NCBI GenBank assembly: GCA_022711665.1
Contig: JAKLEN010000005.1
Span: 261 to 64,260, forward strand
DNA from: Acidobacteriota bacterium
GTDB taxonomy: Bacteria > Acidobacteriota > Aminicenantia > Aminicenantales > Saccharicenantaceae
Direction: 5' to 3'
DNA: 64,000 nucleotides
Part shown: positions 35,985 to 56,587 of the stretch, piece after piece
How the letters are laid out: the number at the start of each line of letters is the position of its first letter
Numbering within the stretch: position 1 is the stretch's first letter
Made by a program: the position numbers and the translations under genes
The notes under the pieces: generated by a model
What the model was told of the DNA's origin: nothing
Seen by the model: the letters and a program-made list of their open reading frames with translations, nothing else
Databases searched by the model: none

Positions 35985-36029
35985 GCCCCGTCCGGTCCCG
36001 TTCCGACGTCCCAGACAAGGAGGATCGCC

Positions 36030-41400: not shown

Positions 41401-41558
41401 CCCAGGGGCCCGGGTCGGAGATCCAGCGGCCGCTGGCGGTTGTCGTGGTCGGCGGCCTGATCTCCTCGACCCTCCTGACCCTCCTGGTCCTGCCGGTGCT
41501 GTACAGCTGGATCGGGCGAGGGAAGCAGGGGAGGAACGCAGTCGCGGCCGCTGATTAA
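38436..41558 (+). CDS. heavy-metal efflux RND transporter, CusA/CzcA family
   Basis: The 1040-aa protein has 12 TM helices and the AcrB/CzcA-family signature segments (AIxxGMIIDATII, GGLISSTLLTLLVLPVLY). Confidence 0.9.
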   Translation: MGFVDGIVESSLRKRALVVFGVLALIGLGVWAVLRIPIDAFPDVTNIQVEVLSTAPGMSPPEVERFVTFPVETAMRGLPRLVQVRSVSKAGLSVVTLIFEDGVDVYFARDRVLERLIEARERVPAGTEIAMGPVSTAMGEIYQYTLAGTRPAGLDPVAYLTEVRTVQDWILSPLIKSIPGVNEINSFGGYIRQFHVTVDPQKLLAYDLTLGDVGEALRRNNLNVGGNILERGEQQYLVRGIGLFQSVDDIGAVALKTERGTPVLVRDVAEVRAGQAVRQGGAVKDGRGEVVGGVAMMLRGANGREVVRTVQSRVAEINASGVLPLGLRIEPYYQRSDIIRRAVGTVTEALLIGCVLVVLILLVFLRSSRGAFIVVLALPLSILFTFVMMRVFGLSANLMSLGGLAISLGMIIDATIIQVENAQRHLSEKGAGARRFTTVLQAILEVRKPSIYGELIIALTFIPILALQGMEGKMFMPLAFTHIIALFASLLLSLVAIPAFCLMVLKPQGDKKSFLVEGAKKAYLPVLRWGLRRKALVVVAAVALLAGTAALIPRLGTEFMPIMDEGALDADVQFLPGISLAESLEMSRKVEARLMEFPELVTIIGKTGQTGVALEARGVEKTGFVGVFKPRNEWTSARTRQEMTDRMRAALEDFPGMAFSFSQPIACRIDELVAGTRAQLIVKLFGEDLDVLKAKADAIAAALGRIEGAKDINVERVAGQPYIVVRPDRARIARLGLNVEDVQSVVETAVGGKTVTQIYEGDRYFDLQVRYPEASRNSVETIGAILVRTPGGARVPLSQVADIARLEGPSQISRESGQRRIGVECNISGRDLGGFVAEARRAIGREVGLPAGYFLTWGGQFENQQRAMRRLAVILPVTIGFIVLLLFMTFGSLRLSLLVLLDLPFALIGGVLALWISGLYLSVPASVGFIALFGIAVLNGIVLLSYITQLEEQGMAPGPAIVQGCLNRLRPVLMTATITVLSLVPLLFAQGPGSEIQRPLAVVVVGGLISSTLLTLLVLPVLYSWIGRGKQGRNAVAAAD

Positions 41559-41594
41559 GCCGATAACGCCGGCGACAACCGGGCCGGGATGAGT

Positions 41595-41645
41595 GGGTTA
41601 AACCTGCCTTTTACCCATTTGTGGGTAAAAGGCAGGTTTGACCCC
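41595..41645. repeat. near-perfect 22-bp-stem palindrome between the RND operon and the permease genes
   Basis: GGTTAAACCTGCCTTTTACCCA-tttg-TGGGTAAAAGGCAGGTTTGACC has a single G:T mismatch. Its arm sequences recur flanking repeat copy 3 (56596-56606 and 57019-57029). Confidence 0.6.
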
Positions 41646-41666
41646 CTCTTGTCCCTATGGTATATC
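41638..41666 (+). promoter_or_regulatory. sigma70-type promoter (TTGACC-N17-TATATC) 9 nt upstream of the permease ATG at 41676
   Basis: The -35 overlaps the right arm of the palindrome. Confidence 0.45.
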
Positions 41667-41675
41667 TTCGGGCTC

Positions 41676-43127
41676 ATGAAAAGCCCCCTGCTCGCCACCA
41701 AATCCATCGAACAGCTGACCCGGGAGGCCGACTCCGACTCCTCCGGTCTTAAACGCGTCCTCGGACCCTGGCACCTCATCTTCCTCGGCGTCGGAGCCAT
41801 CGTCGGCGCGGGCATCTTCGTCATCACCGGCCACGCCGCCGCCCAATACGCCGGCCCGGCCGTCACGCTCTCGTTCATGCTGGCCGGCCTGACCTGCGCC
41901 TTCGCCGGCCTGTGCTACGCCGAGTTCGCCTCGCTCATCCCGATCGCCGGCAGCGCCTACACCTACGCCTACTCGACCCTGGGCGAGATCTTCGCCTGGA
42001 TAATCGGCTGGGACCTCATCCTCGAATATTCGCTGGGGGCCACGACCGTGGCCATCGGCTGGTCGGGCTACGTCGTCAGCTTCCTCAAGGGCATCGGCGT
42101 CGATTTTCCGGCCGTCCTGGCCGACGCGCCGTTCGCCTTCAACCCCCAGACCGGCGTCTGGACCCGGACGGGCGCCCTGATCAACCTGCCGGCCCTCTTC
42201 GTCATCGGCCTGATCACATTCATCCTCGTCCGGGGCATCCGGGAATCGGCCACCGTCAACTCCGTCATCGTCTTCCTGAAGATCAGCATCATCCTGGTCT
42301 TCATCGCCGCGGGCATCTTCTTCATCAAGCCCTCCCTGTGGAAGCCCTTCATCCCGCCCAACCAGGGGCAGTTCGGCTTCTTCGGCCTGAGCGGCGTCCT
42401 GCGCGGAGCCGGGGTCATGTTCTTCGCCTACCTCGGCTTCGACGCCGTCTCGACGACCGCCCAGGAGGCCAGGAACCCGAAGCGGGACATGCCCATCGGC
42501 ATCCTGGGCTCGCTTTGCGCCTGCACGATCATCTACATAGCTTTCTCGCTCGTCCTGACCGGGGTTGTGCCCTACACCGAGCTCAACGTCCCGGCCCCGG
42601 TGGCCGTGGCCATCGACGCCATGAAGCTCTTCTGGCTCTCGCCGCTGGTCAAGATCGCGGCCATCGTCGGCCTGATGTCGGTGATGATGGTCCAGCTGAT
42701 GGGCCAGCCCCGGATCTTCTTCACCATGGCCAAGGACGGCCTGCTGCCGGCGGCGGCGGGCAAGGTGCACCCGAAGTACGGCACGCCGCACGTCACGACG
42801 ATCATCACCGGCGTGATCGTCGGCGTGGCCGCCTCGCTCCTGCCCATGGGCATCGTCGGCGAGCTGGTCAGCATCGGCACGCTCTTCGCCTTCGTCATCG
42901 TCTGCGGCGGCGTCCTGGTCCTTCGCTACACGCGCCCCGATCTCCCCCGGCCGTTCAAGACCCCGTTCGTCCCCTTCGTCCCGATCCTGGGCATCCTGTC
43001 CTGCATCTACCTGATGTCCGGGCTGCCGTGGGCCACCTGGAGCCGCCTGCTCATCTGGATGGCCATCGGCCTGGTCATCTATTTCGCCTACGGCCTGCGC
43101 AAGAGCAAGCTCCGGAGGTCCGCATGA
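41676..43127 (+). CDS. APC-superfamily amino-acid permease
   Basis: It has 12 TM helices and the family motif GAGIFVITG. The ORF-track start at 41589 would run through the palindrome, so I rejected it. Confidence 0.8.
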
Positions 43128-44629
43128 GCGATCCCGCCCCTGCCCCCCTGGCCTCAGTCGGGACCGGCGCGCCCGGCTTCAAGCGCGAGATGTCCCTGTT
43201 CGACGCCATGATGATCGTCATCGGGGCCATGATCGGCTCCGGCATCTTCATCGTCAGCGCCGACATCGCCCGCACGGTCGGCTCGCCCGGCCTGCTCGTC
43301 CTGGTCTGGGTCATCACCGGCGTGGTCACGGTCATCGGGGCCCTGAGCTACGGCGAGCTGGCCGGCATGATGCCCCACGCCGGCGGCCTGTACGTCTACC
43401 TCCGCGAGGCCTACAACCCGCTCGTCGGCTTCCTCTACGGCTGGACGACCTTCCTGGTCATCCAGACCGGGACCATCGCCGCGGTCGGCGTCGCCTTCGC
43501 CAAGTTCACCGGGCTCCTGATCCCCTGGTTCAGCGAGAAGCACATCCTGGCGACGGTCCTGGGGCTGCGGATCTCGGCCGCCCAGCTCCTGGCCATCGCC
43601 AGCATCGTCGTCCTGACCTGGCTCAACATGCGGGGCGTGCGGACGGGCAAGACCGTCCAGGGCGTCTTCACGGTGACCAAGACCGTGGCCCTGGCCGGGT
43701 TCATCCTGCTCGGCCTCTTCGTCGGGGCCAACGCCGGGGCGATCAAGGCCAACCTGGCCGCTTTCTGGAAGGCCAGCTGGACCCACATGGCCGGCGGCCA
43801 GATCGCCTCGGTCGAGCCGCTCTCGGGGCTCATGGTCCTGGCCGCCGTCGGGGCGGCCATGGTCGGTTCGCTCTTCGCCTCGGACGCCTGGTACACCGTG
43901 ACCTACATCGCCGGCGAGGTCAAGAACCCCAAGCGCAACATCCCCCTGAGCCTCGTTCTCGGGGCCGGGACCGTCGTCCTGCTCTATGTCCTGGCCAACA
44001 TCGCCTATATCCTCATCCTGCCCGTCCACGGCAGCCCGGAGGCCGCCGACGTCATGGGCCGGGGCATCCAGTTCGCCTCGTTCGACCGGGTGGGGACGGC
44101 GGCCGCCGAGATGATCTTCGGCCCGGCCGCGGCCGTCATCATGGCCGTGCTGATCATGATCGCCACGTTCGGCTGCAACAACGGTCTGATTTTGTCTGGC
44201 GCGCGCGTCTACTACGCCATGGCCAGGGACGGCCTGTTCTTCACCGCGACGGGGCGCCTGAACCGCAAGGCGGTCCCCGGGACGGCCCTGGTCGTCCAGT
44301 GCGTCTGGGCCTCGCTCCTGTGCCTGAGCGGGACCTACAGCGATCTCCTGGACTACGTCGTCTTCGCCGTGCTGATCTTCTTCGTCCTGGTCGTCTCGGG
44401 CATCTTCATCCTGCGGAAGAAGCGGCCCGATTGGGAGCGCCCCTACAAGGCCTGGGGCTACCCGGTCCTGCCCGCCCTCTACGTCCTGGCGGCCGCGGCC
44501 ATCGCCGTCGACCTGCTCGTCTTCAAGACGAAGTACACCTTCCCCGGGCTTCTGATCGTCCTGCTGGGGATCCCGGTCTACTTCGCGCGCCGGCGGTTCC
44601 TGAGGCCGGCGGCGCCGGTGGGGGACTGA
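43124..44629 (+). CDS. APC-superfamily amino-acid permease (second, divergent paralogue)
   Basis: Its start overlaps the previous stop (ATGA). The family motif is GSGIFIVSA. Confidence 0.8.
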
Positions 44630-44643
44630 CGGGGCGGTCCGGG

Positions 44644-44841
44644 CTATTTCTTGTCCCGGCGCTCGGCGGCCAGCACCCCGGCGGCCATGTATTCCTTCGG
44701 CGAGAATTCCTGGATCCAGACCCGGATCGTTTCGAGCGGGGCGCCGATCGAGTCGTGCACGGCCGCCGTCACCGCCCCGAGCAGGGCCTTCTTCTGGTCG
44801 TCCGTGCGGCCTTCGAGCAGATGTATCTCGACGAGAGGCAT
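44644..44841 (-). CDS. 4-oxalocrotonate-tautomerase-family protein
   Basis: The 65-aa protein MPLVEIHLLEGRTDDQKKALL... has the catalytic Pro at position 2. Confidence 0.75.
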   Translation of the reverse strand: MPLVEIHLLEGRTDDQKKALLGAVTAAVHDSIGAPLETIRVWIQEFSPKEYMAAGVLAAERRDKK

Positions 44842-44900
44842 GGGTAGTCTCCTTTCCCGCCCATTGTATCAGGCCGGACGAGGGGGTCAACCAGGTAGGT

Positions 44901-44929
44901 TTGACTTTGCGGGGGGCTCCTGATATAAA
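44901..44929 (+). promoter_or_regulatory. sigma70-type promoter (TTGACT-N17-TATAAA) 10 nt upstream of the STAS gene ATG
   Basis: The ORF track treated the TTG of the -35 as a start codon. Confidence 0.5.
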
Positions 44930-44939
44930 AAATCCTGAC

Positions 44940-45299
44940 ATGGCGACACCCCTGATTATTAAAACCCGCGAAGTCTCGAGCATCGTCGTCTTCGATATCG
45001 AAGGCGAGATCAGCCGCCAGGACACGCCCCAGGTCACGCTCTCCAGCCTGGTCCAGGACGAGCTCGATCGCGGCCGGCGCAACATCCTCCTCGATCTCTC
45101 CGGCGTGGGCTTCATCGACAGCTACGGCGTCGGCGAGATCCTGGCCAGCTATAAATCCATCCAGAACCTCGGCGGCAGGCTCAAGCTCTGCCGGATCTCG
45201 CCCAAGCTCCTCCTGATCTTCAAGATCACCGGGCTCGACCGGGTCCTCGACATCCGTGAGGACTGCAGCCGGGCCCTGGAGAGCTTCAGCCAGGCCTGA
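44940..45299 (+). CDS. STAS-domain anti-sigma-factor antagonist (SpoIIAA/RsbV-like)
   Basis: The 119-aa protein has the conserved phosphorylatable serine context LDLSGVGFIDSYGVGEI. Confidence 0.8.
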   Translation: MATPLIIKTREVSSIVVFDIEGEISRQDTPQVTLSSLVQDELDRGRRNILLDLSGVGFIDSYGVGEILASYKSIQNLGGRLKLCRISPKLLLIFKITGLDRVLDIREDCSRALESFSQA

Positions 45300-45328
45300 T
45301 CTTCGGGGCGCCGGAGAGGGGAGGCCGC

Positions 45329-47884
45329 GTGACCGACGGCCGGCTCGAACGCCTGTTGCGGGGCTTCGGCGACGTCCGGGGCCGCGAAGCCCGGGCGGCC
45401 CTGGCCCTGTCGGCCTACTTCTTCCTGATCACGGCCGCCTTCTATATCATCAAGCCGGTCAAGGAGAGCCTGCTCATCGGCATCCATCCGGCCTGGTGGT
45501 CGTACGCCGACCTGGCCACGGCCCTGCTCATCGGCTTCGTCGTCGCCCTCAACGCCAGGCTCCTCGACCGCCTGCCGCGGCGCACCTATCTCACGGCCTC
45601 GCTCCTGTTCTTCGTGGCCAGCCTGCTCGTTTTCTGGCTCGTCTTCGACATGATCCGGACGAGCCAGGTCCAGACGCCCGTGGCCGACTCTTCGGGCATC
45701 CTCTTCCTCCTCTGGGCCCAGACGGTCATCCTCAGGGCGCCGCTCGTTCCGGTCATCGTCTTCAGCTTCTGGGCCGACGTGTTCATCGCCATGGCCGTGA
45801 CCCAGTTCTGGATCGCCGTCAACGACGTCCTCCACGCCCACCAGGCCAAGCGGCTGGTCGGCCTGTTCGTCACGGGAGGCCTGGTCGGCGGCATCGCCGG
45901 AGCGGCCATCGCCTTCCTGGCCACCACGCTCAAGGCCGTCAAGGTCGAGACCCTGCTCCTCGTCTGCCCAGTCCTGCTCCTCCTGGCCCTGGTGACGGTC
46001 AACTTCGTCTACGCCGGGCGCCAGAGGATCGACGCCGCGGCCGGGGACGGGCGCATCGGCCCGGCGGCCGGGGCCGGCGCCCCGGCCGGGTTCGGCCAGG
46101 TCCTCCGGCACCGCTACCTCCGGCTCCTGGCGGCCATGCTGGCCTCGGCCATCCTGGCCGGGACCCTGATCAACTACCAGTTCAAGACGGCCGTCAAGAG
46201 CGCCTATCCCGGCGACCAGGCCCGGACCTCCTACATCGCCGGCTTCCTGCTCGTCATCCTGGCCGTCTCGACCGTCTTCCACCTCCTGACGACCGACCGC
46301 TTCCTCAAGACCTATGGCATCCGCTGGGCCATCTCGCTCGCGCCGCTGGCCCTGCTCCTCGGCTCGGCGGCCGTCTTCGTCATCCCGGCCGTCCTGGCGC
46401 TGCCCTGGGCCTCGCTCGTCCGGGGGGCCGACAAGGGCTTCGACAACACCCTCAGCCAGTCCGTCCGCGAGCTCCTCTACATCCCTGTGCCGGCGGACGT
46501 CAAGTACCGGGCCAAGATCTTCATCGACATGTTCGTCAGCAAATTCGCCACCGGCTGCGGCGCCCTGGTGTTCCTGGGCCTGCGGGCCGTCCGCAATTTC
46601 GATTACCGCGCCGGCCAGGACCTGGCTATCCTCCGCGAGATCGGCGTGCTGACCGTCGCCGCCGTCCTCGTCTGGCTGGTCCTGACCCGCCTGGTCTATC
46701 GCGAGTACCCGGCCGTCCTGAAGCAGCCCATCCGCCGCAAGTGGACCCCGGCCGACGAGGTCATCCGCGAGCACGTCGACGAGGACCTGACCCTCAAGGT
46801 CTTCAATACCATCCAGAGCCGGGAGCGGAGCACGACCCTCTATCTCATGAACATCTTCGACCTGGTCCGGCGCCGGGACCTGACCCCCGACCTCAGGGGC
46901 CTGCTCGGGCTCAAGAGGGACGAGATCAAGGCCCGGGGCATGGACGCCCTCTTCGATGTCGGCGGCGCGGCCTTCTTCCCCGGGCTCGAGGAGGCCGTCG
47001 ACGATCCGGCCTTCCGCCGGGAGATCGAGCTCGTCTTCCTCCTGCCGGTCTACCAGGAGATCATGGCCCAGCGGCTGGGAGAGATGGCGGCCTCCCCGGC
47101 CGAGCTCGACCGCATCGAGGTGGCCAAGCTCATTGGCCGCATGGTCCCCAACCCGCCCACGATCGAGGCCCTGGGCCGGCTGCTGCGGGACCCCTCGGCG
47201 GAGGTCGCCCTCTACGCCCTGGAGAGCGCCGCCGTGCACCGCCACCCCGGCCACGTGCCCCTGATACTGGATCAGCTGGCCAATCCCATGCTCCGGGCCG
47301 CGGCCCAGACGGCGTTGGCCGCCTACGGGCCGGGCGTCGCGGCCCTGGTCGCCCCGGCCCTGGCTTCGGACGGGACGCCCGTCGAGATCCGCCGGGCCCT
47401 GCCCGAGGTCCTGGCCCGCCTCGGCACCCAGACCGCCGCCGACATCCTGCTCGACGGGCTGGGCCGCCGCGACGAGGCCCTGGAACAGGCCCTGGTCGAC
47501 GCCCTGGCCAAGATCCGGCTCGACCGGCCCGAGATCCGCTTCTCCCACAAGGCGGTCCGGCTGGAGCTGCTGGGCCTCGTCCGGAGGACCTGCGAGATCG
47601 TCCTGGACCCGCCGGCCGGCCCGCCGGCCGAGGCCAGGGCGCTACTCGATATCCGGCTCAAGCGGGTCTTCGACCTCCTGACGCTCCTCTACCCGCCGGA
47701 GGACATCGTCAAGGCCTACCAGAATATCCTGCAGGGGACGGCCCAGTCGACCGACTACTCGCTCGAGCACCTGGACATGCTTCTCGACCGGGAGCTCAAG
47801 GGCCTGCTCCTGCCCCTGGTCGACGCCGGCCTGTCGCCCGAGGAGCGGGCCCAGCGCCTGCGCCGGGCCCTGAGGTTGAAATGA
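45329..47884 (+). CDS. TLC-family (ATP/ADP-translocase-like, Npt-type) transporter domain fused to C-terminal HEAT/PBS-lyase-like repeats
   Basis: A GTG start is preceded by GAGAGGGGAGG. The N-terminal ~440 aa is polytopic, with the TLC-like opening motif FFLITAAFYIIKPVKESLLI. The C-terminal ~400 aa consists of Leu/Ala-rich repeats. Confidence 0.7.
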   Translation: MTDGRLERLLRGFGDVRGREARAALALSAYFFLITAAFYIIKPVKESLLIGIHPAWWSYADLATALLIGFVVALNARLLDRLPRRTYLTASLLFFVASLLVFWLVFDMIRTSQVQTPVADSSGILFLLWAQTVILRAPLVPVIVFSFWADVFIAMAVTQFWIAVNDVLHAHQAKRLVGLFVTGGLVGGIAGAAIAFLATTLKAVKVETLLLVCPVLLLLALVTVNFVYAGRQRIDAAAGDGRIGPAAGAGAPAGFGQVLRHRYLRLLAAMLASAILAGTLINYQFKTAVKSAYPGDQARTSYIAGFLLVILAVSTVFHLLTTDRFLKTYGIRWAISLAPLALLLGSAAVFVIPAVLALPWASLVRGADKGFDNTLSQSVRELLYIPVPADVKYRAKIFIDMFVSKFATGCGALVFLGLRAVRNFDYRAGQDLAILREIGVLTVAAVLVWLVLTRLVYREYPAVLKQPIRRKWTPADEVIREHVDEDLTLKVFNTIQSRERSTTLYLMNIFDLVRRRDLTPDLRGLLGLKRDEIKARGMDALFDVGGAAFFPGLEEAVDDPAFRREIELVFLLPVYQEIMAQRLGEMAASPAELDRIEVAKLIGRMVPNPPTIEALGRLLRDPSAEVALYALESAAVHRHPGHVPLILDQLANPMLRAAAQTALAAYGPGVAALVAPALASDGTPVEIRRALPEVLARLGTQTAADILLDGLGRRDEALEQALVDALAKIRLDRPEIRFSHKAVRLELLGLVRRTCEIVLDPPAGPPAEARALLDIRLKRVFDLLTLLYPPEDIVKAYQNILQGTAQSTDYSLEHLDMLLDRELKGLLLPLVDAGLSPEERAQRLRRALRLK

Positions 47885-47902
47885 CCGGACGCGTCATCTA
47901 GA

Positions 47903-49603
47903 ATGACGGCGGAGAGAACGCCCATGGCCAACCTTTACATCTACCCGAAGTCGGGGGAGCCCTCGACCTTCCCGCTGGCCGGGCGCCGCGTCACAGTCGG
48001 CCGCTCATCGGCCAACGACATCGTCCTGTCCGACCAGTTCAGCTCGGGCGTCCACGCCGTCATCGCCCCGACCGAGCACGGCTACGCCCTCATCGACCAG
48101 GGCAGCAAGAACGGCACCTTCGTCAACGGCCGGCGCGTCAACGGCGAGATCGACCTGGCCCGGGGCGACGAGATCCTGATCGGCTCGACCCGCTTCTTCT
48201 TCGACAAGGATTTCCAGCCGCCCGTCGAGACCGTCGAGGGCACGACCTTCACCCACAGCTCGAACACGATCATCCAGGTCAAGGACATCCTCAGGAAGAC
48301 GCCGGGGACCGGGGTCATCATGAAGACGCCTGGCGGCGGGCTCGACCTGGAGCGCCTGCAGAAGGACCAGAAGACGAGCTCGGTCCTGACGGCCGTCAGC
48401 CAGGCCCTGATCTACCACATGCCGCTGGAGAAGCTCCTCGGCCACATCATGGACGTCCTCATCCAGCACCTGCCGATGGACCGCGGCGTCCTGATGATCA
48501 AGAACGAGGCCACCGAGGCCCTCGAGCCCAAGGTCGTCCGCATCCAGAACGGCGCCCTGCGGAACCAGAGCATCTTCGTCAGCCAGACCATCGTCCGGAC
48601 GGCCCTGGAGCGCAACTCGGCCATCCTCATCTCCGACATCCAGGCCGACGAGGACCTGCGCGAGCAGTTCAGCGTCATCCAGGCCCGGATCCACTCGGCC
48701 ATGTGCGTGCCCCTTTGGAACAACCAGGACATCATCGGCCTCATCTACTGCGACCGGGCCTCGCTCCTGGAGCAGTTCAGCGAGGACGACCTGCGGCTGC
48801 TGACCCTTCTCGGCAACCTGGCCGCGGTCAAGATCGAGAACGCCCGTCTCTATGAACAGGCCCTGGAGAAGGCCCGCCAGGACCGCGAGCTGGCCCTGGC
48901 CACCCAGATCCAGATGAACTTCCTGCCCCGGACCGACCCCGACTTCGCCCCCTACGAGGTCAGCGGCAGCGCCCGGGCCTGCCGCCATGTCGGCGGGGAC
49001 TATTTCGACTATATCGCCGTCGACAAGGACCGCCTGGCCCTGGTCATCGCCGACGTCTCGGGCGTCGGCGTCAGCGCCTCGTTGCTCATGGCCTCGCTGC
49101 GGGGCGGCCTGCACGAGCGCTTCCCGGGCGTCATCGACCTGGCCCAGGTGGCTTCCCACCTGAACGATTTCGTCTACGCCAGCTCGGACAGCCATCTGTT
49201 CATCTCCTTCTTCCTGGCCATCCTCGACCGGACCCGGGACGAGCTCAGCTACGTCAACGCCGGCCACAATCCGCCCCTCGTCGTCGGCCGCAAGGGCCCG
49301 GCCAAGTCCCTGGAGACGACCGGGCTGTGCCTGGGCATGTTCCCCGGCCAGGCTTACCGTGAGGAGAAGGCCGGGCTGGCCCCCGGCGACATCCTCTGCC
49401 TCTACACGGATGGCATCGTCGAGAGCCGGGCCGGGGGCGGCGAGGAATACGGCGAGAAGCGCCTGGCCGACAAGGTCCGGGAGCTGCGCGGCCGCCCGGC
49501 CCGGGAGATCCGCGACCGGCTCTTCGAGGACGTCTTCGCCTTCAGCGCCTGCGACGAAGCCGGCGACGACATGACACTCGTCGTCGTCAAGCGGAACCCA
49601 TGA
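47903..49603 (+). CDS. FHA-GAF-PP2C (SpoIIE/RsbU-type) serine phosphatase
   Basis: The FHA domain (RVTVGRSSANDIVLSD...GTFVNGRRV) is followed by a GAF-like middle region and the PP2C motifs (GGDYFDY, DVSGVG, YTDGIVE). The alternative start is the ATG at 47924. Confidence 0.8.
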   Translation: MTAERTPMANLYIYPKSGEPSTFPLAGRRVTVGRSSANDIVLSDQFSSGVHAVIAPTEHGYALIDQGSKNGTFVNGRRVNGEIDLARGDEILIGSTRFFFDKDFQPPVETVEGTTFTHSSNTIIQVKDILRKTPGTGVIMKTPGGGLDLERLQKDQKTSSVLTAVSQALIYHMPLEKLLGHIMDVLIQHLPMDRGVLMIKNEATEALEPKVVRIQNGALRNQSIFVSQTIVRTALERNSAILISDIQADEDLREQFSVIQARIHSAMCVPLWNNQDIIGLIYCDRASLLEQFSEDDLRLLTLLGNLAAVKIENARLYEQALEKARQDRELALATQIQMNFLPRTDPDFAPYEVSGSARACRHVGGDYFDYIAVDKDRLALVIADVSGVGVSASLLMASLRGGLHERFPGVIDLAQVASHLNDFVYASSDSHLFISFFLAILDRTRDELSYVNAGHNPPLVVGRKGPAKSLETTGLCLGMFPGQAYREEKAGLAPGDILCLYTDGIVESRAGGGEEYGEKRLADKVRELRGRPAREIRDRLFEDVFAFSACDEAGDDMTLVVVKRNP

Positions 49604-50043
49604 TAACGGAGCGGGGGAGGGCCGTGATCGGACCGGAGCCGCGGGAGCTGCGGGTCCCGGCCCGGATCACGGAGGTCGACCGCATCAGGGCCTTCCTCCG
49701 CGAGGCCATCGCCGGCCTGCCGCTCGACGAGGAGGACCGGCTCCGGGTCGAGCTGGCCCTCCACGAGATCTGCGTCAACATCGCCCGCTACGCCTATCCC
49801 CGGGGCCGCAAGGGGGACATGATCGTCCGCATCTGGCAGGATGGCGACTCCCTCTACGTCGAGGTCCGGGACTCGGGCATACCCTTCAACCCCGTCCGCA
49901 AAAAGAACCCCGACCTGAAGGTCAAGCTGCGCCGCGGCCTCCCCGGCGGCCTGGGCGTCTACTTCTTCAAGACGCTCATGGACGGCCTGTCGTACCGGCG
50001 GGCCGGCGGCCAGAACATCCTGACAGTCCGCAAGGCCCTCTGA
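49600..50043 (+). CDS. anti-sigma regulatory factor / serine protein kinase of the RsbW/SpoIIAB family (GHKL ATPase fold)
   Basis: It overlaps the upstream stop (ATGA). The HATPase_c motifs are EICVNIARYA and DSGIPFNP...GGLGVYF. Confidence 0.75.
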   Translation: MITERGRAVIGPEPRELRVPARITEVDRIRAFLREAIAGLPLDEEDRLRVELALHEICVNIARYAYPRGRKGDMIVRIWQDGDSLYVEVRDSGIPFNPVRKKNPDLKVKLRRGLPGGLGVYFFKTLMDGLSYRRAGGQNILTVRKAL

Positions 50044-50898
50044 TCAATAGAGGACCTTGGCCTCGCCGTTGACCTTGATCAGCCGGCCGATCTCGTCCAG
50101 GACGAGGTCCCGGCGGACCAGGACGGCCCGGATCTCCTCGTCGGTCAGGTAGGCGCCGACGGCCGAGCGGACGGCGGCGAAGTCGAGGGCCCTGACCCTG
50201 GCCACCACGGCCCGGGGCAGCTCGCTCATGAGCTTCGGCCCGTCGGGCGACTTGGCCGAGTAGAGGAGGCTCCTGAGGAAGCGGCCCGAGGTCCGGAACG
50301 AGCGCGAGTGGTCGATCAGCACCATCCGCCAGTCGGCGGTGATCAGGATCTGGTTCAGGTGCCGGTCCTCGTTGGCGATGAGGTTGTCGAAGAGCCGCTG
50401 GAGGTAGGTGGCCCGGTTCCAGGCCGGGACCTGCCGCGGCGGGATCTTGAGGCCCCGGTCCTCCTTGTCCCGCAGCGACATGCAGCCGTCGACCCAATAC
50501 TGGCAGGACCCCCGCTCGTCGCGGAAGCGGCGCTCGACGGTGGGCGGCACCAGCTCCAGGCCGAGGAGCTTGTCCAGGCGGTAGGCGGCGATCTCGTACT
50601 GCCAGCCCTCCCAGTAGCCGCCCATGCGGCCCTGGGCGTTCTTCCACAGCCCGCGGTGCCTGACGCCGCCGAGCTCGAGCATCAGGACCCAGGGGGAGGT
50701 CACTGCTTCGGCGCCCGTCATCTGCCGACTCTCGCTCTCGACGACCACGGCCTCCGCCAGGAAAGCCTCCCAGCGGCCGCGCTGGGCCAGGTCCTCGGCC
50801 CGGAACTGCGGCGGCGCGGCCGGGTCCTCGCAGCCGGCCGGGAGGGCGGCCGCCAGGGCCGCGGCCAGGGCCAGGATGACGGCCGACCGCGGGCTCAA
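50044..50898 (-). CDS. exported lipoprotein with an atypical-kinase-like domain (PI3/PI4-kinase-like catalytic-loop signature DRHxN...IDHS), paralogue 1
   Basis: A TTG start is preceded by GGAGG. The lipobox is LPAGC. WKNAQG...WQYEIAAYRLDKLLGLELVPP resembles the PI3K Lys/alphaC region. IANEDRHLNQILITADWRMVLIDHSRSF has the spacing of the PI3K DRHxxN...IDFG motif. The kinase assignment is an inference from motifs, not from a search. Confidence 0.6.
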   Translation of the reverse strand: MSPRSAVILALAAALAAALPAGCEDPAAPPQFRAEDLAQRGRWEAFLAEAVVVESESRQMTGAEAVTSPWVLMLELGGVRHRGLWKNAQGRMGGYWEGWQYEIAAYRLDKLLGLELVPPTVERRFRDERGSCQYWVDGCMSLRDKEDRGLKIPPRQVPAWNRATYLQRLFDNLIANEDRHLNQILITADWRMVLIDHSRSFRTSGRFLRSLLYSAKSPDGPKLMSELPRAVVARVRALDFAAVRSAVGAYLTDEEIRAVLVRRDLVLDEIGRLIKVNGEAKVLY

Positions 50899-51725
50899 TA
50901 GACAACCTCCTGGCCCTGTTCCCCGATCATCCGGGCGATCTCCCGGACGAGCAGGTCGCGGCGGGACAGGACGGCCCGGATCTCCCGGTCAGTGAGGGTC
51001 GCGCCGACGGCGGCGCGGATGTTGTCGAAGGTCAGCGTGCCGATCCGGTCGACGAACCAGCGGGGCAGGCGCCGGAAAAGGAACGGCTCCCCGGCGTCCC
51101 CTCTCTTGATGCCGTCGCGGCCGAACATCAGCCGCTTGGAGAATTCGCCGCCGCTGCGGAAGGCCCGGGAGTGGTCGAAGAGGATCATCCGCCAGTCCTC
51201 GGTGTAGAGTATATTCTGCTGGGTCCGGTCTTCGTTGGCGATCAGGCTGTCCCAGGCCCGGGCCAGGTACTTCATCTTTTCCGTGCGGTCCTGGGCCTCG
51301 TCCGGGATGCGGATGCCTTCCTCCACGAGCTTGAGCAGGCTGTATTTATTCTCGGCCCAAAGGACCAGGGCGCCCTTCCGGCCCCGGAAGGTGCGCTCGA
51401 CGGCCGGCGGGACCATGTTCAGCCCCAGGAGCTTGTCCAGGCGGTAGGCGGCGATCTCGTACTGCCAGCCTTCGAGATGGCCGTTCTGCAGGCCGCGGGG
51501 GTTCTTCCAGGCGGCCTTGCGCTCGACGCCGTCCTTCTCCAGGTAGAGCCGCCAGGGACGGGTCACGCCTTCGCCGATCTCCTCCGAGCGGACGATCCGG
51601 GCCGTCAGCAGGAAGTCCTCCATGGCCGCCCGCCGGGCGACCTCTTCGGCCGTGAACTGGGCGGAGGCGACGGACGGCCAGGCCGCCGCCAGGACCAGGG
51701 ACAGGAGAACGAGGGATCGTTTCAT
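50895..51725 (-). CDS. exported protein with the same atypical-kinase-like domain, paralogue 2 (catalytic His replaced, DRTQQN)
   Basis: A signal peptide ...VASA|QF is followed by WQYEIAAYRLDKLLGLNMVPP and IANEDRTQQNILYTEDWRMILFDHSRAF. The start is TGAATG-coupled to the upstream gene. Confidence 0.6.
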   Translation of the reverse strand: MKRSLVLLSLVLAAAWPSVASAQFTAEEVARRAAMEDFLLTARIVRSEEIGEGVTRPWRLYLEKDGVERKAAWKNPRGLQNGHLEGWQYEIAAYRLDKLLGLNMVPPAVERTFRGRKGALVLWAENKYSLLKLVEEGIRIPDEAQDRTEKMKYLARAWDSLIANEDRTQQNILYTEDWRMILFDHSRAFRSGGEFSKRLMFGRDGIKRGDAGEPFLFRRLPRWFVDRIGTLTFDNIRAAVGATLTDREIRAVLSRRDLLVREIARMIGEQGQEVVY

Positions 51726-53180
51726 TCAGGCCTCCCCGGCGGCCGCGTCCGTGGCCGCTTTCCGCCCGGCGTAGGCGGGAATGATCTTGAGGCAGATCGC
51801 CAGGAGCACGATGACTGCGACGACGTTGAGAAGGGCGAAGCGCTCGACCGGCAGGCCCAGGAGCCCGGTGCCGATAAGGACGGCCAGGGCCGAGAGCGTG
51901 TCTCCGCCGCGGACGAAGAACGTATCGATGGCCGCCTTGGCCTTGTACTTCTCCTCGCGCCGGGTGACAAGGAACAGGGCGGCCTTGGTCGTGTTCTGGA
52001 GGGAATAGTCGGTGCCGTTCTCCAGGGCCTTGACCCAGCGGACCAGGCCCAGGACGGCGCCGAAGGAGATGAGGGCGTAGCCGCCCAGGGCGAGCAGGGG
52101 CAGGACGAGCAGGGCCCCGTTGACGCCGATCCATTTGAAGATGCGCGAGACGAGGAAGAGCTGGATGACCAGGGCGATCAGGTTGGTCAGGAACTGGTAG
52201 TCCATGAAGGCGTCGTGGATGGCTTTCTCCGCCGGCTCGTTGGCCCCTTCCGGCGCCGGCGACGGAGCCGAGGCCGCGGAGGGGCCGGCGATCGACCGGT
52301 TGACCGTGGCCGTGGTGATGATGTACTCCCCGGTCGCGTTGACGAAATTGTAGAGCCCGATCATGAGCGCGATGAGCAGCAGGTAGCGGTTGCGGAAGAC
52401 GAGCCTGAAGCCGCCTCCGGCCCGGAGCGGCATCTCCTGGGTCTCGGCCCGGGCCCCGGCGCCGGCCTGGCCCCGTTCCCGGGCCGCCGCGACGGCCCGG
52501 ACCTCGCGGCGGTGGATATGCCGGGCCAGGAGGATGCAGACGAAAAGGATGATCCCGGCCAGGAGCATCAGCTTGAACTCCCAGTGGCTCCCCAACAGGT
52601 CCCGCAGCCGTTTCATGAACGGCAGCGTGGCCACCAGGCCGCCGGAGGTCGCTCCCAGGGCCACCAGCGGGAAGGCCCGCTTGCCGGCCTCGTCGGAGTA
52701 GAGGTCGTTGGCGAAACCCCAGAATTGGGCGATGACGAAATAATTGAAGATGCCGATCCAGATGAAGAACAGGATGCCCATGGGCCTGACGGCCATCCCG
52801 CCGAGGTCGAGCAGGTAGAACAGGGCCAGGTTGGAGATGAAGAAAGACGTCGTCCAGGTGATCAGCACGTGGCGCGGCACCCTGGAGGACAGGCGGCTGA
52901 AGGCCTTGACGACGAAGACGAAGAGCACCGCCTGGGCCCCGCTCAGGCAGCTCTTGACGACGGCCGAGTCCTTGTCCACGAGGAGGAGCGCCTCGCGCAG
53001 GGGCTTGAGGATATAGTAGGCCAGGAGCAACAGGAAGACGTTCAGGCCCAAGAGCAGGGCCTTGGGCGCCTCGCCTGGCCGGATGTCGGCGAAGAGCCGC
53101 AGGAACCGGTAGCCCGGGCTGTAGCGCTGCGGCGGCGCGACCGCGGCCGCCGCCTCGAGACGATCGGGCATTGGCGCCAT
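51726..53180 (-). CDS. TLC-family (ATP/ADP-translocase-like, Npt-type) membrane transporter
   Basis: It has 11-12 TM helices. KALLLGLNVFLLLLAYYILKPLREALLLVD matches the TLC N-terminal signature (K..L.LM.F.ILFNY.ILR..KD.L.V). It is paralogous to the N-terminal domain of 45329..47884. The likely true start is the ATG at 53171, which sits 9 nt after GGAGG. Confidence 0.7.
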   Translation of the reverse strand: MAPMPDRLEAAAAVAPPQRYSPGYRFLRLFADIRPGEAPKALLLGLNVFLLLLAYYILKPLREALLLVDKDSAVVKSCLSGAQAVLFVFVVKAFSRLSSRVPRHVLITWTTSFFISNLALFYLLDLGGMAVRPMGILFFIWIGIFNYFVIAQFWGFANDLYSDEAGKRAFPLVALGATSGGLVATLPFMKRLRDLLGSHWEFKLMLLAGIILFVCILLARHIHRREVRAVAAARERGQAGAGARAETQEMPLRAGGGFRLVFRNRYLLLIALMIGLYNFVNATGEYIITTATVNRSIAGPSAASAPSPAPEGANEPAEKAIHDAFMDYQFLTNLIALVIQLFLVSRIFKWIGVNGALLVLPLLALGGYALISFGAVLGLVRWVKALENGTDYSLQNTTKAALFLVTRREEKYKAKAAIDTFFVRGGDTLSALAVLIGTGLLGLPVERFALLNVVAVIVLLAICLKIIPAYAGRKAATDAAAGEA

Positions 53181-53192
53181 CCTCCGGCCCGG

Positions 53193-55058
53193 TCAGAACA
53201 GGACCCGGGCCTCGCCCAGGGTCCGGATCAGGCTGCGGATCTTGCGGATGAGAAGCGTCCGGCGGGCGTTGAGGGCCTCGATCTCTTCCCGGCCGAGGTA
53301 GGGACTCAGGTAAGCGGCGACGGCCTTGCCGTCCCAGGCCTGGAGGCGGGAGTAGAGGGCCCTGGAGCAGCTCCGGACCTGGCAGCCCGAGCCCTCGCCC
53401 TTGTCCGGGGCGAAGGCCTCGGAGAAGTCGACCCGATAGATCCGTTCGTCGCCCTCCCGGACGAGCGTGTCCTTGTCCCGGCGGCAGTCGTCGTTGACCA
53501 GGGCCTGGAAGACGGTCAGGTCGGCCAGGGCCCGCTCGAAGGCCTGGCGGTCCCTTGGCTCGATCCCGGCCTCCCGCCGCTCGGCCAGCGAACGGGCGCC
53601 GGAGACGAACGCCTGCACGGCCCCGGCGACGCCCTCGACCGTTCGTTCGACGATCGGCGGCACGGCTTCGATGTCGAGGTATGTGCTCAGGGCGTAAGCG
53701 GCCAGGTCGTAGCGCCAGCTGTCGGCCAGGGAGTCGGGCCGCCGCCGGTCGATGTACTTGAACAGGGCCGGCCGGGAGAACCCCTCCGATTCGAGGGTCA
53801 GGCGCCAGGCATCGGTGCGGCCGCCGACGCCGGGACCGCGGCCCGTGACGGCGGCGGTCCGCAGGAACGTCTCCATCTCCCGCGGCGACAGGGGCCGCGG
53901 CGGGGGCGGCCGGATGCCGCTGCGGGCGGCCACTTCCTCCGTCTCGCCCCAGACCTTGAACTCGCCGCGCTCATAGACCAGGGCCGAGGGGATGCCGCCG
54001 TAGCTGCCGGAGATGCCCGTGTCCATTATCCAGACCTTGTCCTGGAACCGGGTGACGCGGCTCTTCTCGACGACGGCGCTCGAGCCGTGGTTGAAGCGGA
54101 AGTAGTTATGGCCGATGACCATGGCCCTGGCGCCCAGGTTGGCCAGGGTCCGGTCAATCTCGGCCTGGGCCGCGGCCTCGCTCTTGGTGGCCAGGCCCCG
54201 GAACCAGAGAGGGCTGTCGGGGTCGTAGACGAGCCGGGGATGGAACGGCTTGCCGTAATCCTGGGGGTTGCGCATGCGCCCCTGGAAGAATTGGAGCTCG
54301 GTGCGTATGACTTGGTTGATCTCCCGGAGGGGCCACTTGGAGACGGCCTCGCTGATCCCGCCGTGGACGTAAACGATGTCGTCGATCTTGATGACCGAGT
54401 TCTGCCGCACCAGCCAGTCGCCGCAGGCCTTGTTGAAGCCCAGAATGTAGGCCCGGCGGGCCTCGGGGTCCCTGGCGGTCAGGGCCTTGTGCCAGAATCC
54501 GGCCAGGTCCTCGTCGGCATAGATGTCGAGGCCTTCGATCTCGGCCTTGCGGCGCTCCTCGGCCGGGAGCGTCCTGAGGAATTCCGCCTCCCGCTTGCGG
54601 CGGAAGTCCGCCGGCAGGAAGGCCACGAACTGCTCGACGGGCACGTAATCCGGATAGTCCAGGACTATGCCGGTGATGTTCATCTCCTCATGGTTGCCGA
54701 GGAGCATGTGGACGGCGCCGCCGGCTTCGGCCGCTTCGCCCTGCAGCCGCCGGATGAGATCGAGGATGTCCTTGGCCCGCGGGCCCCGATCCAGGACATC
54801 GCCGAGCTGGACGAGGTGGGTCCGGCCCCCGATCCAGTGGAGCGAAGCGTCGACCAGCCCGATCTGGGGATGGGCCAGGATGAAGACGAAGCGGTCGTAG
54901 TCGCCATGGAGGTCGGCCACGGCCACGACCCGGTCGACGCCGGTCCATTGATAGGGGATCTCGTCGGCCGGGGCGGGGCGGACCAGGAGGGCGAGGGCCA
55001 GCGCCAGCCCCGAAAGGAAGGGACGCAGCTCCGGACGGCCTTTTCTGCGGCGGAACAT
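53193..55058 (-). CDS. exported fusion protein: PPP-family metallophosphoesterase (ApaH/PrpA-like) N-terminal domain plus a degenerate atypical-kinase-like C-terminal domain (paralogue 3)
   Basis: A signal peptide is followed by the MPP motifs DLHGDYDRF, GDVLDRGP and GNHEEMN. The C-terminal domain (AAYALSTYLDIEAVPPIVER...LVNDDCRRDKDTLVRE...VDFSEAF) aligns to the other two paralogues with catalytic residues lost. Confidence 0.65.
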   Translation of the reverse strand: MFRRRKGRPELRPFLSGLALALALLVRPAPADEIPYQWTGVDRVVAVADLHGDYDRFVFILAHPQIGLVDASLHWIGGRTHLVQLGDVLDRGPRAKDILDLIRRLQGEAAEAGGAVHMLLGNHEEMNITGIVLDYPDYVPVEQFVAFLPADFRRKREAEFLRTLPAEERRKAEIEGLDIYADEDLAGFWHKALTARDPEARRAYILGFNKACGDWLVRQNSVIKIDDIVYVHGGISEAVSKWPLREINQVIRTELQFFQGRMRNPQDYGKPFHPRLVYDPDSPLWFRGLATKSEAAAQAEIDRTLANLGARAMVIGHNYFRFNHGSSAVVEKSRVTRFQDKVWIMDTGISGSYGGIPSALVYERGEFKVWGETEEVAARSGIRPPPPRPLSPREMETFLRTAAVTGRGPGVGGRTDAWRLTLESEGFSRPALFKYIDRRRPDSLADSWRYDLAAYALSTYLDIEAVPPIVERTVEGVAGAVQAFVSGARSLAERREAGIEPRDRQAFERALADLTVFQALVNDDCRRDKDTLVREGDERIYRVDFSEAFAPDKGEGSGCQVRSCSRALYSRLQAWDGKAVAAYLSPYLGREEIEALNARRTLLIRKIRSLIRTLGEARVLF

Positions 55059-55192: not shown

Positions 55193-56587
55193 ATGAAAGG
55201 ACTCGCGACCATGAGACAACGAACGGATCTCGCGGCGGGGGGCCGGCGGGGGAGGGGACCGGCGGCCCGCCTGGCGCTGGCGGCCGGTCTGGCGGCGGTC
55301 CTGGGGCTGGCCCTGGCGTCCTGCGCCGGTCGGGAGAGGCCGGCCGGGCCCGGGACGACGGCGGCCGCGGCCCGGGTCAAGCCCGGCGTCGAGGTTTTCC
55401 TGGAGAAGCACCTCGACCTGGTCAAGGGCAAGCGGGTCGGCTTGATAACAAACCAGACCGGCACGGACGCCGGGCTGCGTTCGACCGTGGAGCTCTTCCA
55501 GTCCAACCCCGCCATCCGGCTGGTCGCCCTTTACGGCCCCGAGCACGGCGTCCGGGGCGACGCCCAGGCCGGCGTCTACGTGCCGTTCTATTACGACCAG
55601 GCCTATAAGCTGCCCGTATTCAGCCTCTACGGACAATCCTTCAAGCCCGATCCGGGCATGCTCAGGAACATAGACGAGTACATGCGCTCCTTCGACACCC
55701 GGGAGGCGGGCAAGGTGCCGGAGGGGGGCATGGTCAAGGACGTCGACGTGCTCGTCTTCGACATCCAGGACGTCGGGACTCGCGTCTACACCTACGTCGC
55801 CACCATGGCCTACGCCATGCAGGCCGCGGCCGAGGCCGGGCTCGACTTCATCGTCCTGGACCGGCCTGCGCCGATCAACGGCGTCGACATGGAAGGGGCC
55901 ATCCTCGAGTACCCGGAGCTCAGCTCGTTCATCGGGCTGTTCCCGATCCCGCTGCGGTTCGGCATGACGGCCGGCGAGCTGGCCCGCCTGTTCAACGACA
56001 AGTTCCTGGCCCGCACGGCCAAGCTGACGGTCATCCCCGTGGAGGGCTGGTCGCGGTCGATGTGGTTCGACGAGACCGGGCTGCCGTGGGTCATCCCCTC
56101 GCCCAACATGCCGACCCTGGACACGGCGACCGTCTACCCCGGTCTGGTGGCCATCGAGGGCACCAACCTGTCGGAGGGCCGGGGCACGACCCGGCCGTTC
56201 GAGCTCTTCGGCGCGCCGTGGCTCGACGGCCACGCCCTGGCCGCCCGGCTGAACGCCCTCGGCCTGCCGGGGGTCCGCTTCCGGGAAGCCTGGTTCACGC
56301 CGTCCTTCTCCAAGTTCCAGGGCGAGCTCTGCGGCGGCTGCCAGATTCACGTGACCGACCGGACGGCCTTCCGCCCGGTGGCCACAGTCCTTCACATCAT
56401 CAGGACGGTGCGGGACGCGGCCCCGGGCAAGTTCGCCTTCCACGCCGATTACTTCGACAAGGTCATGGGCACGGCCTCCGTCCGCAAGGCCCTGGAAGCG
56501 GGGACGGACGTGGCCGCCATCCTGGAGAGCATGCGGCCCGGCCTGGAATCTTTCGCCGCTTTGCGCCGGGCTTATCTGCTCTATTAA
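55193..56587 (+). CDS. DUF1343-family lipoprotein (NamZ-like exo-beta-N-acetylmuramidase family)
   Basis: The lipobox is LASCAG. KRVGLITNQTGTD, the conserved DUF1343 N-terminal motif, is present. Confidence 0.7.
   Translation: MKGLATMRQRTDLAAGGRRGRGPAARLALAAGLAAVLGLALASCAGRERPAGPGTTAAAARVKPGVEVFLEKHLDLVKGKRVGLITNQTGTDAGLRSTVELFQSNPAIRLVALYGPEHGVRGDAQAGVYVPFYYDQAYKLPVFSLYGQSFKPDPGMLRNIDEYMRSFDTREAGKVPEGGMVKDVDVLVFDIQDVGTRVYTYVATMAYAMQAAAEAGLDFIVLDRPAPINGVDMEGAILEYPELSSFIGLFPIPLRFGMTAGELARLFNDKFLARTAKLTVIPVEGWSRSMWFDETGLPWVIPSPNMPTLDTATVYPGLVAIEGTNLSEGRGTTRPFELFGAPWLDGHALAARLNALGLPGVRFREAWFTPSFSKFQGELCGGCQIHVTDRTAFRPVATVLHIIRTVRDAAPGKFAFHADYFDKVMGTASVRKALEAGTDVAAILESMRPGLESFAALRRAYLLY

Follow-up and report, generated by a model that had tools for sequence, protein, structure and literature searches.

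A sigma-less partner switch conserved beside a TLC-HEAT transporter and exported FAM20-like kinases in Aminicenantes

The window analysed here is a stretch of 64,000 nucleotides from an uncultured sediment bacterium of the Aminicenantes (contig JAKLEN010000005.1 of assembly GCA_022711665.1), with a GC content of 65-74 %. On its plus strand, positions 44940-50043 encode, in this order, a STAS protein, a transporter in which a TLC-type membrane domain is fused to HEAT repeats (TLC-HEAT), an FHA-GAF-PP2C phosphatase and an RsbW-type kinase, i.e. the components of a partner switch with a transporter gene among them (Table 1). Position, strand and order of the four genes had been given in an initial annotation made from the letters alone, and all of them hold, as do its domain calls. 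When related genomes are compared, the STAS and phosphatase genes flank the TLC-HEAT gene in nearly all loci, and the convergent operon next to them, encoding exported FAM20-like kinases, a second TLC protein and an exported phosphatase, belongs to the same conserved unit.

Organization of the locus

The genes of the switch operon are separated by 29 bp and 18 bp and, at the last junction, overlap by 4 bp (ATGA), as read from the sequence; the k4 gene of the convergent operon directly abuts the RsbW stop codon from the opposite strand. A possible sigma-70-type promoter upstream of the STAS gene was missed by the scan tool because its -10 hexamer ends in A. This putative promoter ends around 10 nt 5' of the STAS start codon (ATG), so that a leaderless mRNA could result. 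Terminator-like sites were not in excess in the region 44400-50400 (four, compared with 1.9 +/- 1.8 in shuffled sequence), and all four lie within coding regions. When all 64,000 nucleotides were scanned with Rfam, a single tRNA gene was the sole match, with neither a riboswitch nor a leader close to the operon.

Table 1. Genes, domains and other features of the locus, numbered by position in the 64,000-nucleotide window (aa, amino acids)
Feature	Position	Strand	Description
STAS protein, SpoIIAA/RsbV type	44940-45299	+	119 aa; PF01740, 56 bits
TLC-HEAT protein	45329-47884	+	851 aa; PF03219 and HEAT_2
TLC/NTT-type domain of 12 transmembrane helices	45329-46720	+	aa 1-464; PF03219, 48 bits
HEAT/PBS-lyase-type repeat tail, predicted cytoplasmic	46721-47884	+	aa 465-851 and stop codon; HEAT_2, 33 bits
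FHA-GAF-PP2C/SpoIIE phosphatase	47903-49603	+	FHA aa 30-94, GAF aa 175-311, PP2C/SpoIIE aa 375-564
RsbW/SpoIIAB-type serine kinase	49600-50043	+	147 aa; HATPase_c_2 (PF13581), 97 bits
k4, exported lipoprotein, FAM20/PI4KII-type kinase fold	50044-50898	-	284 aa; lipobox/signal peptide
k6, exported FAM20-like kinase paralogue	50895-51725	-	276 aa; signal peptide MKRSLVLLSLVLAAAWPSVASA↓Q; 48 % identical to k4
TLC2, stand-alone TLC paralogue	51726-53180	-	484 aa; PF03219, 57 bits
Exported PPP-type metallophosphatase with FAM20-like, pseudokinase-looking domain	53193-55058	-	621 aa; signal peptide
Possible sigma-70-type promoter	44901-44929	+	TTGACT 44901-06, 17-nt spacer, TATAAA 44924-29, TG 44921-22; read by eye
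Sigma-70-like site	47876-47904	+	TTGAAA-17-TAGAAT, 10/12 positions; promoter scan
4-oxalocrotonate tautomerase family gene	44644-44841	-	65 aa; NCBIfam 72 bits, cut-off 55; divergent from STAS
Outer-membrane factor of RND efflux set	35985-37289	+	upstream of the unit
AcrB-type pump of RND efflux set	38436-41558	+	upstream of the unit
Amino-acid permease gene	41589-43127	+	after the RND set
Amino-acid permease gene	about 43127-44629	+	after the RND set
Exo-beta-N-acetylmuramidase NamZ gene	55193-56587	+	flanks the unit
tRNA gene	6887-6972	+	Rfam

The TLC-HEAT transporter

The membrane domain of TLC-HEAT matches the TLC family over the full length of the profile (PF03219, positions 18-491 of 491), above the gathering score of 21, and the HEAT_2 match lies at residues 613-668 of a tail of around 390 amino acids. 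An NCBI entry from a metagenome-assembled genome, 'Npt1/Npt2 family nucleotide transporter [Candidatus Aminicenantes bacterium]', has the same sequence (100 % identity). An AlphaFold2 model built with 80 homologues (predicted local distance difference test, pLDDT, 85; predicted template modelling score, pTM, 0.72) consists of an MFS-like bundle of the 12-helix type up to around residue 464, a short, poorly predicted linker and a helical repeat solenoid that continues to the C-terminus, with a pLDDT mostly above 85 from residue 560 on.

When the model was compared with the PDB by Foldseek, ranks 1 to 5 were taken by 9j3n, 9j3l, 9j3m, 9j3j and 9j3o (E 2e-9 to 3e-7), with target-normalised TM-scores of 0.61-0.77, or 0.70-0.77 for the top three (9j3n, 9j3l and 9j3m). 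The NTT1 structures of Chlamydia pneumoniae and Arabidopsis, published in 2025, thus outrank other MFS families as fold matches, and the assignment of the N-terminal domain to the TLC/NTT type rather than to another MFS family stands. In a search of PDB sequences with a profile of 23 homologues, C. pneumoniae NTT1 (CpNTT1; 9j3n) was matched with E 1e-34 and Arabidopsis NTT1 (AtNTT1; 9j3j) with E 1e-25, while the tail matched alphaRep HEAT designs (E 1e-33 to 1e-8). The profile alignment with CpNTT1 pairs RDTKD with KsvRe, FW.F.NE..AKR with FW...ND..AKR, LIEVTWK with LIDfqfK and KGKAAID with KyrAKvfID; in these stretches the basic residues are retained and Glu is replaced by Asp. Nucleotide exchange by NTTs requires conserved charged residues of the membrane domain, which in AtNTT1 are K155, E245, E385 and K527. 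Judged by their scores with the NCBIfam model TIGR00769, both TLC proteins of the window are distant members of the TLC/NTT superfamily and not orthologues of Npt1/Tlc1.

The tail aligns end to end with the tails of NTT-HEAT proteins that are linked to a cyclic nucleoside monophosphate (cNMP)-binding domain (cNBD). Two NTT-HEAT relatives, P0203 and P0206, the latter an NTT-HEAT-cNBD fusion, align to TLC-HEAT residues 7-835 in one stretch. Neither TLC-HEAT itself nor the genes beside it contain a cNMP-binding domain; the STAS gene is found there instead.

The partner-switch proteins

The STAS protein scores 67 bits with the NCBIfam model for anti-sigma factor antagonists (TIGR00377, cut-off 53). 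Its predicted phospho-acceptor is Ser61, in the motif FIDS[F/Y]GVG, which reads FIDS61YGVG in the window, and this Ser is invariant in 67 distinct STAS orthologues. In the phosphatase, the Pfam scores are 68 bits for FHA, 57 for GAF and 158 for SpoIIE/PP2C (PF07228), and the PP2C metal-site motifs GGDY.D and ADVSG.G are kept in 79 orthologues. The residues of the N, G1 and G2 boxes of the RsbW-type kinase (E..N, D.G..F and GG.G) are likewise kept in 37 orthologues. In one relative (L027:10556-12745) a single open reading frame (ORF) of 729 amino acids encodes both the FHA-GAF-PP2C phosphatase and the RsbW-like kinase, and a long ORF of another (L032, 10522-12741) is apparently a similar phosphatase-kinase fusion.

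The operon has no sigma factor gene, and within 7-10 kb no such gene is conserved in any of the gene arrangements described below; an action of RsbW on a local sigma factor was therefore rejected. In a single locus, L010, a sigma-70 family gene is divergent from the STAS gene. The initial annotation had pointed to a switch placed around a transporter where a sigma factor would be expected; the lack of a sigma gene is borne out, but sigma-less partner switches are well known.

The convergent operon

The operon on the minus strand had been treated as mere context of the switch operon. In fact, it encodes two exported FAM20-like kinases, k4 and k6, the stand-alone transporter TLC2 and an exported phosphatase, and forms part of the same conserved unit. 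The TLC2 gene follows that of the phosphatase after 12 bp and adjoins the k6 gene with a spacing of 0 bp. TLC2 bears the motif YILKPLREALLL and is 27 % identical to the membrane domain of TLC-HEAT over 444 amino acids (E 2e-19), which confirms the paralogy proposed earlier.

The k4, k6 and 621-amino-acid proteins all start with a signal peptide, in one case with a lipobox. By a simple hydrophobicity test, used here in place of SignalP, a signal peptide or lipobox is kept in 43 of 50 orthologues of k4, in 70 of 72 of k6 and in 68 of 77 of the phosphatase. The three proteins have a domain of around 230 amino acids in common, and Pfam, including its Fam20C model, gave no match for any of them. 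A profile of the FAM20-like family of the window matched FAM20A (E 4e-5), Fam20B (E 3e-3) and Fam20C (E 8e-3), while the matches of the FAM20-like proteins to the NCBIfam 'SCO1664 family' (TIGR03843) were weak and below the cut-off. The motifs that align with FAM20A are EIAAY.LD...VPPTV.R, LI.N.DRH and (L/I)D..R.F. In k4 and k6, the catalytic Lys (K86) and the metal-binding Asp (D196) show no variation, and the motif D178-R-H with the catalytic-loop Asp is conserved to at least 90 %, the aligned FAM20A motifs being NMDRHH and LDNARGF; the atypical kinase fold is the one that both have in common with Fam20C, Fam20B and PI4KIIalpha.

The N-terminal half of the 621-amino-acid protein matches the cold-active PPP-type protein-tyrosine phosphatase of Shewanella (1v73/2z72, E 2e-28), and residues from around 395 to 621 align with k4 and k6. 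Since Cys replaces the catalytic Asp178 there, the phosphatase-fused domain looks like a pseudokinase and, by analogy, may be a partner of k4 and k6 as FAM20A is for FAM20C.

Conservation and gene order

An exhaustive HMMER search with TLC-HEAT returned 6,696 representative clusters of relatives. Around 30 of them contain proteins of 800-860 amino acids at 31-50 % identity, and the remainder mostly proteins of 900-1100 amino acids at less than about 32 %. For gene order we scanned genomes, one per species, and took the best 80 of 489 relatives, all Aminicenantes, at 35-81 % identity to TLC-HEAT. Neighbourhoods were opened at several distances, all loci were searched with the proteins of the window, and the overall synteny sample amounted to about 90 Aminicenantes loci. 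A metagenome scan centred on TLC2 added 80 further loci with 10-kb flanks.

The neighbourhood comparison bore out the synteny expected by the initial annotation. The STAS gene lies directly 5' of the first TLC-HEAT gene in 65 of the 68 loci having upstream sequence; at the three others, the first TLC-HEAT copy was apparently cut by the contig end. Directly 3' of TLC-HEAT, the FHA-GAF-PP2C gene was present in 71/72 loci.

At least three architectures were distinguished. Type A, that of the window, is found at 49 % identity and above: STAS, TLC-HEAT, PP2C and RsbW in one direction, followed by k4, k6, TLC2 and the phosphatase gene in the other. Type B (35-42 % identity) begins with RsbW, followed by the opposite-strand block of k4, k6, TLC2 and phosphatase, and then by STAS, two tandem copies of TLC-HEAT and PP2C in the same direction as RsbW. 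The two blocks are swapped in order between Types A and B and still adjacent. Type C (L006/L007, 31 % identity) consists of RsbW, ATP sulfurylase, APS (adenosine 5'-phosphosulfate) kinase, STAS and TLC-HEAT, followed by unrelated peptidase genes; its 31 %-identity STAS-linked representative is also labelled Aminicenantes. While the flanks vary, as between L001 and L002 and in L006, the core persists.

RsbW was adjacent to PP2C in none of the 28 tandem-copy loci. An outright absence of RsbW from them was considered and rejected, as the TLC2-centred scan placed it on the far side of the kinase block. RsbW thus always adjoins the exported-enzyme block, convergent with the last FAM20-like kinase gene, even where STAS and PP2C lie across that block, and its presumed partners stay by the transporter block. 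In the TLC2-centred scan, FAM20-like genes directly follow TLC2 in 31/38 loci, the phosphatase gene precedes it in 41/54, and an RsbW-like gene lies convergent just past the kinase genes in 21/25. STAS and TLC-HEAT are within 10 kb of TLC2 in eight of the nine loci with full flanks.

At 27-30 % identity, the relatives whose neighbourhoods were opened lack a STAS gene; a cNBD gene lies next door (L008) or the cNBD is fused (L009). One relative at 32 % identity has neither cNBD nor STAS.

Hanks-type Ser/Thr kinases with tetratricopeptide repeats (TPR) are encoded directly 5' of STAS in some loci of the tandem-copy type (L010:1753-4872, L092:1416-4493 and L093:5387-8491), and related kinase genes lie near several further Type B loci. 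Others are found downstream of the cNBD-fused relative (L009:9028-11625) and one gene upstream of a relative without STAS (L091:5511-8066). Such kinases may generate the phosphothreonine that is read by the FHA domain of the phosphatase. As a universal part of the system a Pkinase-TPR protein was rejected, because it stands beside STAS only in some relatives; the window holds neither a Hanks-type kinase nor a second RsbW-like gene.

Two kinds of variant context concern the transporters. Between the RsbW-like gene and STAS/TLC-HEAT of L006/L007 (4196-9394), the ATP-sulfurylase and APS-kinase genes would provide for synthesis of PAPS (3'-phosphoadenosine 5'-phosphosulfate), which could hint at an adenine-sulfonucleotide as substrate. 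In two loci of 44-45 % GC (L164:5067-11425 and L172:726-7087), a TLC2-like gene, around 50 % identical to the Aminicenantes TLC2, lies on the same strand directly after genes for a GH127 arabinofuranosidase-like protein, an FGGY sugar kinase and L-rhamnose isomerase, and FAM20-like genes are absent from both.

Of the flanking genes, that of the tautomerase occurs in L001-L005 and in the majority of Type A loci, whereas Type B lacks it; as a conserved neighbour in the single-copy architecture only, it is probably outside the system. The RND and permease genes upstream are common to some Type A loci (L002 and L003), L001 not being one of them. NamZ recurs as a neighbour: in Type A its gene borders the unit, and several Type B loci (L010, L072 and L077) have it immediately past the PP2C gene.

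A proposed switch dedicated to the transporter

We tentatively favour, at somewhat less than an even chance, the reading that the locus encodes a sigma-less partner switch dedicated to an NTT-HEAT transporter, which together with the neighbouring operon makes up one conserved Aminicenantes unit serving the exported kinases. RsbW would phosphorylate STAS at Ser61, and the PP2C phosphatase would remove this phosphate when its GAF domain, by a small ligand, and its FHA domain, by phosphothreonine, permit. One form of STAS, or RsbW freed from STAS, would then bind the cytoplasmic HEAT tail, upon which the transporter opens or closes. The STAS switch would thereby fill the role that a fused or neighbouring cNBD would play in the distant NTT-HEAT relatives. 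On the side of the exported enzymes, the two TLC proteins would serve the kinases by exchanging adenine nucleotides across the inner membrane, and the switch would couple this nucleotide flux to the state of the cell.

That the switch controls the transporter is plausible and well backed by synteny, since the link between STAS and TLC-HEAT is kept through tandem duplication, block transposition and a change to unrelated neighbours. The strongest argument for an action on the transporter itself, and probably on its tail, is that the STAS switch sits where a cNBD sits on the same chassis. The initial annotation went further and had the switch acting through the HEAT tail; the functional link is supported by the synteny, but the tail route was overstated, and control may run via the tail. 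As for the purpose, the exported FAM20-like enzymes depend on a nucleotide donor outside the cytoplasm and a TLC gene lies among theirs, so that nucleotide exchange would be the simplest one. Since RsbW-type kinases respond to changes in the ATP/ADP ratio, the switch would be well suited to keep the export of ATP in check.

It is tempting, if rather speculative, to extend this to a bacterial counterpart of eukaryotic secretory phosphorylation, in which exported FAM20-like kinases, with a pseudokinase partner fused to the exported phosphatase, would act reversibly on envelope proteins or glycans, NTT-type exchangers would carry ATP out to the periplasm and ADP back, and TLC-HEAT would be gated through its HEAT tail by the partner switch in response to cytoplasmic energy charge and other signals; we regard this wider scheme as possible but doubtful. 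The periplasm is usually assumed to be free of ATP. Signal-peptide proteins with a FAM20 fold, an NTT-like transporter and an exported phosphatase in one operon suggest a way in which a bacterium could carry out reversible ATP-dependent phosphorylation outside the cytoplasm, and, if the scheme is true, ATP would be exported to the periplasm only when the cell can afford it. The transporter would also join the short list of partner-switch outputs other than sigma factors. More generally, NTT-HEAT proteins occur in cyanobacteria, Chlamydia, oomycetes and many free-living bacteria, and this widespread family has been without a known function or regulator since its description in 2017. The locus gives a testable idea for it, namely that a regulatory module docks on the HEAT tail, and that this module would be a cNBD in some lineages and a phosphorylatable STAS protein here. 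Although the host is uncultured, all parts can be expressed and assayed in vitro.

Contrary evidence and alternative explanations

Several observations weigh against a dedicated switch that gates nucleotide exchange for exported kinases. First, neither transporter is close to characterised nucleotide carriers: with the NCBIfam model for NTP/NDP exchange transporters (TIGR00769), TLC-HEAT scores 40 bits and TLC2 50 bits, both below the cut-off of 387, and the identity of TLC-HEAT to solved NTT structures is 16-19 %. Given these low values, nucleotides are candidate substrates only. Chlamydial PamNTT1, moreover, strongly favours ATP import, the reverse exchange being negligible (PMC1951785); therefore, ATP export is no default property of the family. 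TLC2-like genes of around 50 % identity are without any kinase genes in 7/38 loci, from lower-GC organisms, and the context of L164 and L172 suggests a sugar-related substrate for that branch. RsbW is 5-7 kb from STAS in the tandem-copy architecture. Every STAS-linked locus found is from the Aminicenantes, so that common descent, and not selection, could account for some of the synteny. Finally, the compactness of the operon, from which the initial annotation derived a single transcript, is confirmed, but one transcript is unprovable from sequence. A sigma-70-like site spans the 3' end of the TLC-HEAT gene and the start of the phosphatase gene; given this site the four genes need not share one transcript, and the phosphatase and kinase genes could also be transcribed separately.

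One alternative reverses the direction of the signal: TLC-HEAT would be a transceptor, i.e. the input, reporting the flux or availability of a solute via its tail to the switch, whose target, for example a sigma factor or an enzyme such as a diguanylate cyclase, would be encoded elsewhere. We consider this unlikely. RsbW proteins classically sequester sigma factors and the one in the window has all the usual motifs; its gene is not always beside those of STAS and PP2C, so it may have its own partner. The divergent sigma-70 family gene of L010 would suit such a scheme, as would the remote action of the sigma-less switches SypA/SypE, HsbA/HsbR and BtrV/BtrW (reviewed in PMC8256260). However, none of the three architectures has a conserved sigma factor or another conserved cytoplasmic candidate, and STAS is constantly accompanied only by the transporter and the phosphatase. 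The latter already has two sensor domains, FHA and GAF, so that an extra sensor is unneeded, and the replacement of STAS by a cNBD in the relatives fits regulation of the transporter better.

A second alternative, to which we also give a low probability, keeps the transporter as the output and changes its cargo. The TLC-like proteins would carry a non-nucleotide solute, such as a sugar or sugar phosphate, or a sulfonucleotide; the switch would regulate uptake, and the exported kinases would use another donor or the transported compound. The low similarity to true NTTs is in line with this, as are the TLC2-like genes within the rhamnose/arabinofuranosidase gene run of L164 and L172, the ATP-sulfurylase and APS-kinase genes of L006/L007 and the frequent presence of NamZ, a muropeptide hydrolase, as a neighbour. 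In addition, Fam20B and PI4KII, among the best structural matches of the exported kinases, phosphorylate sugar and lipid, not proteins. Nevertheless, NTTs are the closest family both in solved structures and in sequence profiles, before all other MFS families, and the NTT signature stretches align, i.e. the basic residue after the first transmembrane helix, FW..N(D/E)...AKR and K..K..ID. In any case, a FAM20-type enzyme would still have to find its nucleotide donor beyond the membrane, on the outer side.

Very improbable, finally, is a gene order inherited by chance in a slowly rearranging lineage, with switch, transporters and exported enzymes functionally unlinked: all STAS-linked loci do come from the Aminicenantes and unrelated neighbours (the tautomerase, the amino-acid permeases and NamZ) are often conserved too, but the flanks change while the core persists (L001 compared with L002; L006), the blocks have swapped order and stayed adjacent, the transporter gene has undergone duplication in place, some genomes have a PP2C-RsbW fusion, and the order holds as transporter identity drops to 31-38 %.

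Comparison with known systems

Many free-living bacteria carry NTT genes, and fusions of the NTT-HEAT kind were already described in 2017, some of them with an associated cNMP-binding domain (Major, Embley & Williams, PMC5381601). The view in the initial annotation that TLC homologues are unusual in a free-living organism is therefore outdated. That study included one Aminicenantes sequence in its data set and has no mention of STAS or anti-sigma proteins (PMC5381601). In common with the NTT-HEAT clade, the window protein has a TLC/NTT domain fused C-terminally to HEAT repeats (PF13646) and a free-living host, and the function is uncharacterised in both; with the cNBD-linked members it aligns over the full length at 27-30 % identity. 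In contrast to NTT-HEAT-cNBD, the window has no cNBD domain or gene, and has the STAS gene 5' and the FHA-GAF-PP2C gene 3' of the transporter gene. Proteins of the window type are also shorter, with around 800-860 amino acids compared with 900-1100 in the NTT-HEAT relatives. While NTT-HEAT fusions and sigma-less switches were thus already known, the combination of a STAS/PP2C switch with TLC-HEAT is new: in our literature searches we came across neither STAS together with NTT-HEAT, nor a partner switch paired with an MFS/NTT transporter, nor bacterial FAM20-like proteins together with NTTs.

The switch itself resembles SypE/SypA of Vibrio, HsbR/HsbA of Pseudomonas and BtrU/V/W of Bordetella in combining a STAS protein with a phosphorylatable Ser, an RsbW-type kinase and a PP2C phosphatase without a sigma factor gene in the operon, and the kinase-phosphatase fusion of L027 recalls SypE. 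Unlike in those systems, a transporter gene lies between the STAS and phosphatase genes in the window, and the phosphatase has FHA and GAF inputs.

A STAS fold on the cytoplasmic side that is needed for, or modulates, a transporter is also known from MlaB of the MlaFEDB ABC transporter and from the STAS domain of SLC26/SulP proteins. MlaB binds the ABC ATPase, and both MlaB and the SulP STAS domain stand outside any kinase/phosphatase cycle, whereas here the presumed docking site is the HEAT solenoid and STAS comes with the full phospho-switch machinery.

Regarding the membrane domain, C. pneumoniae NTT1, Arabidopsis NTT1, PamNTT1 and Rickettsia Tlc1 have the same fold and comprise the best structural matches. 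These characterised ATP/ADP translocases have no HEAT tail and import ATP into parasites or plastids.

For the exported enzymes, the closest parallel is the eukaryotic secretory pathway, where the kinases FAM20A/B/C get their lumenal ATP through an ATP/ADP exchanger; among bacteria, CtkA of Helicobacter pylori is a secreted kinase. Compared with these, the putative kinases of the window are bacterial periplasmic or lipoprotein forms of around 280 amino acids, and the candidate transporter is of the NTT/MFS type, as opposed to the SLC35 type of the eukaryotic secretory pathway.

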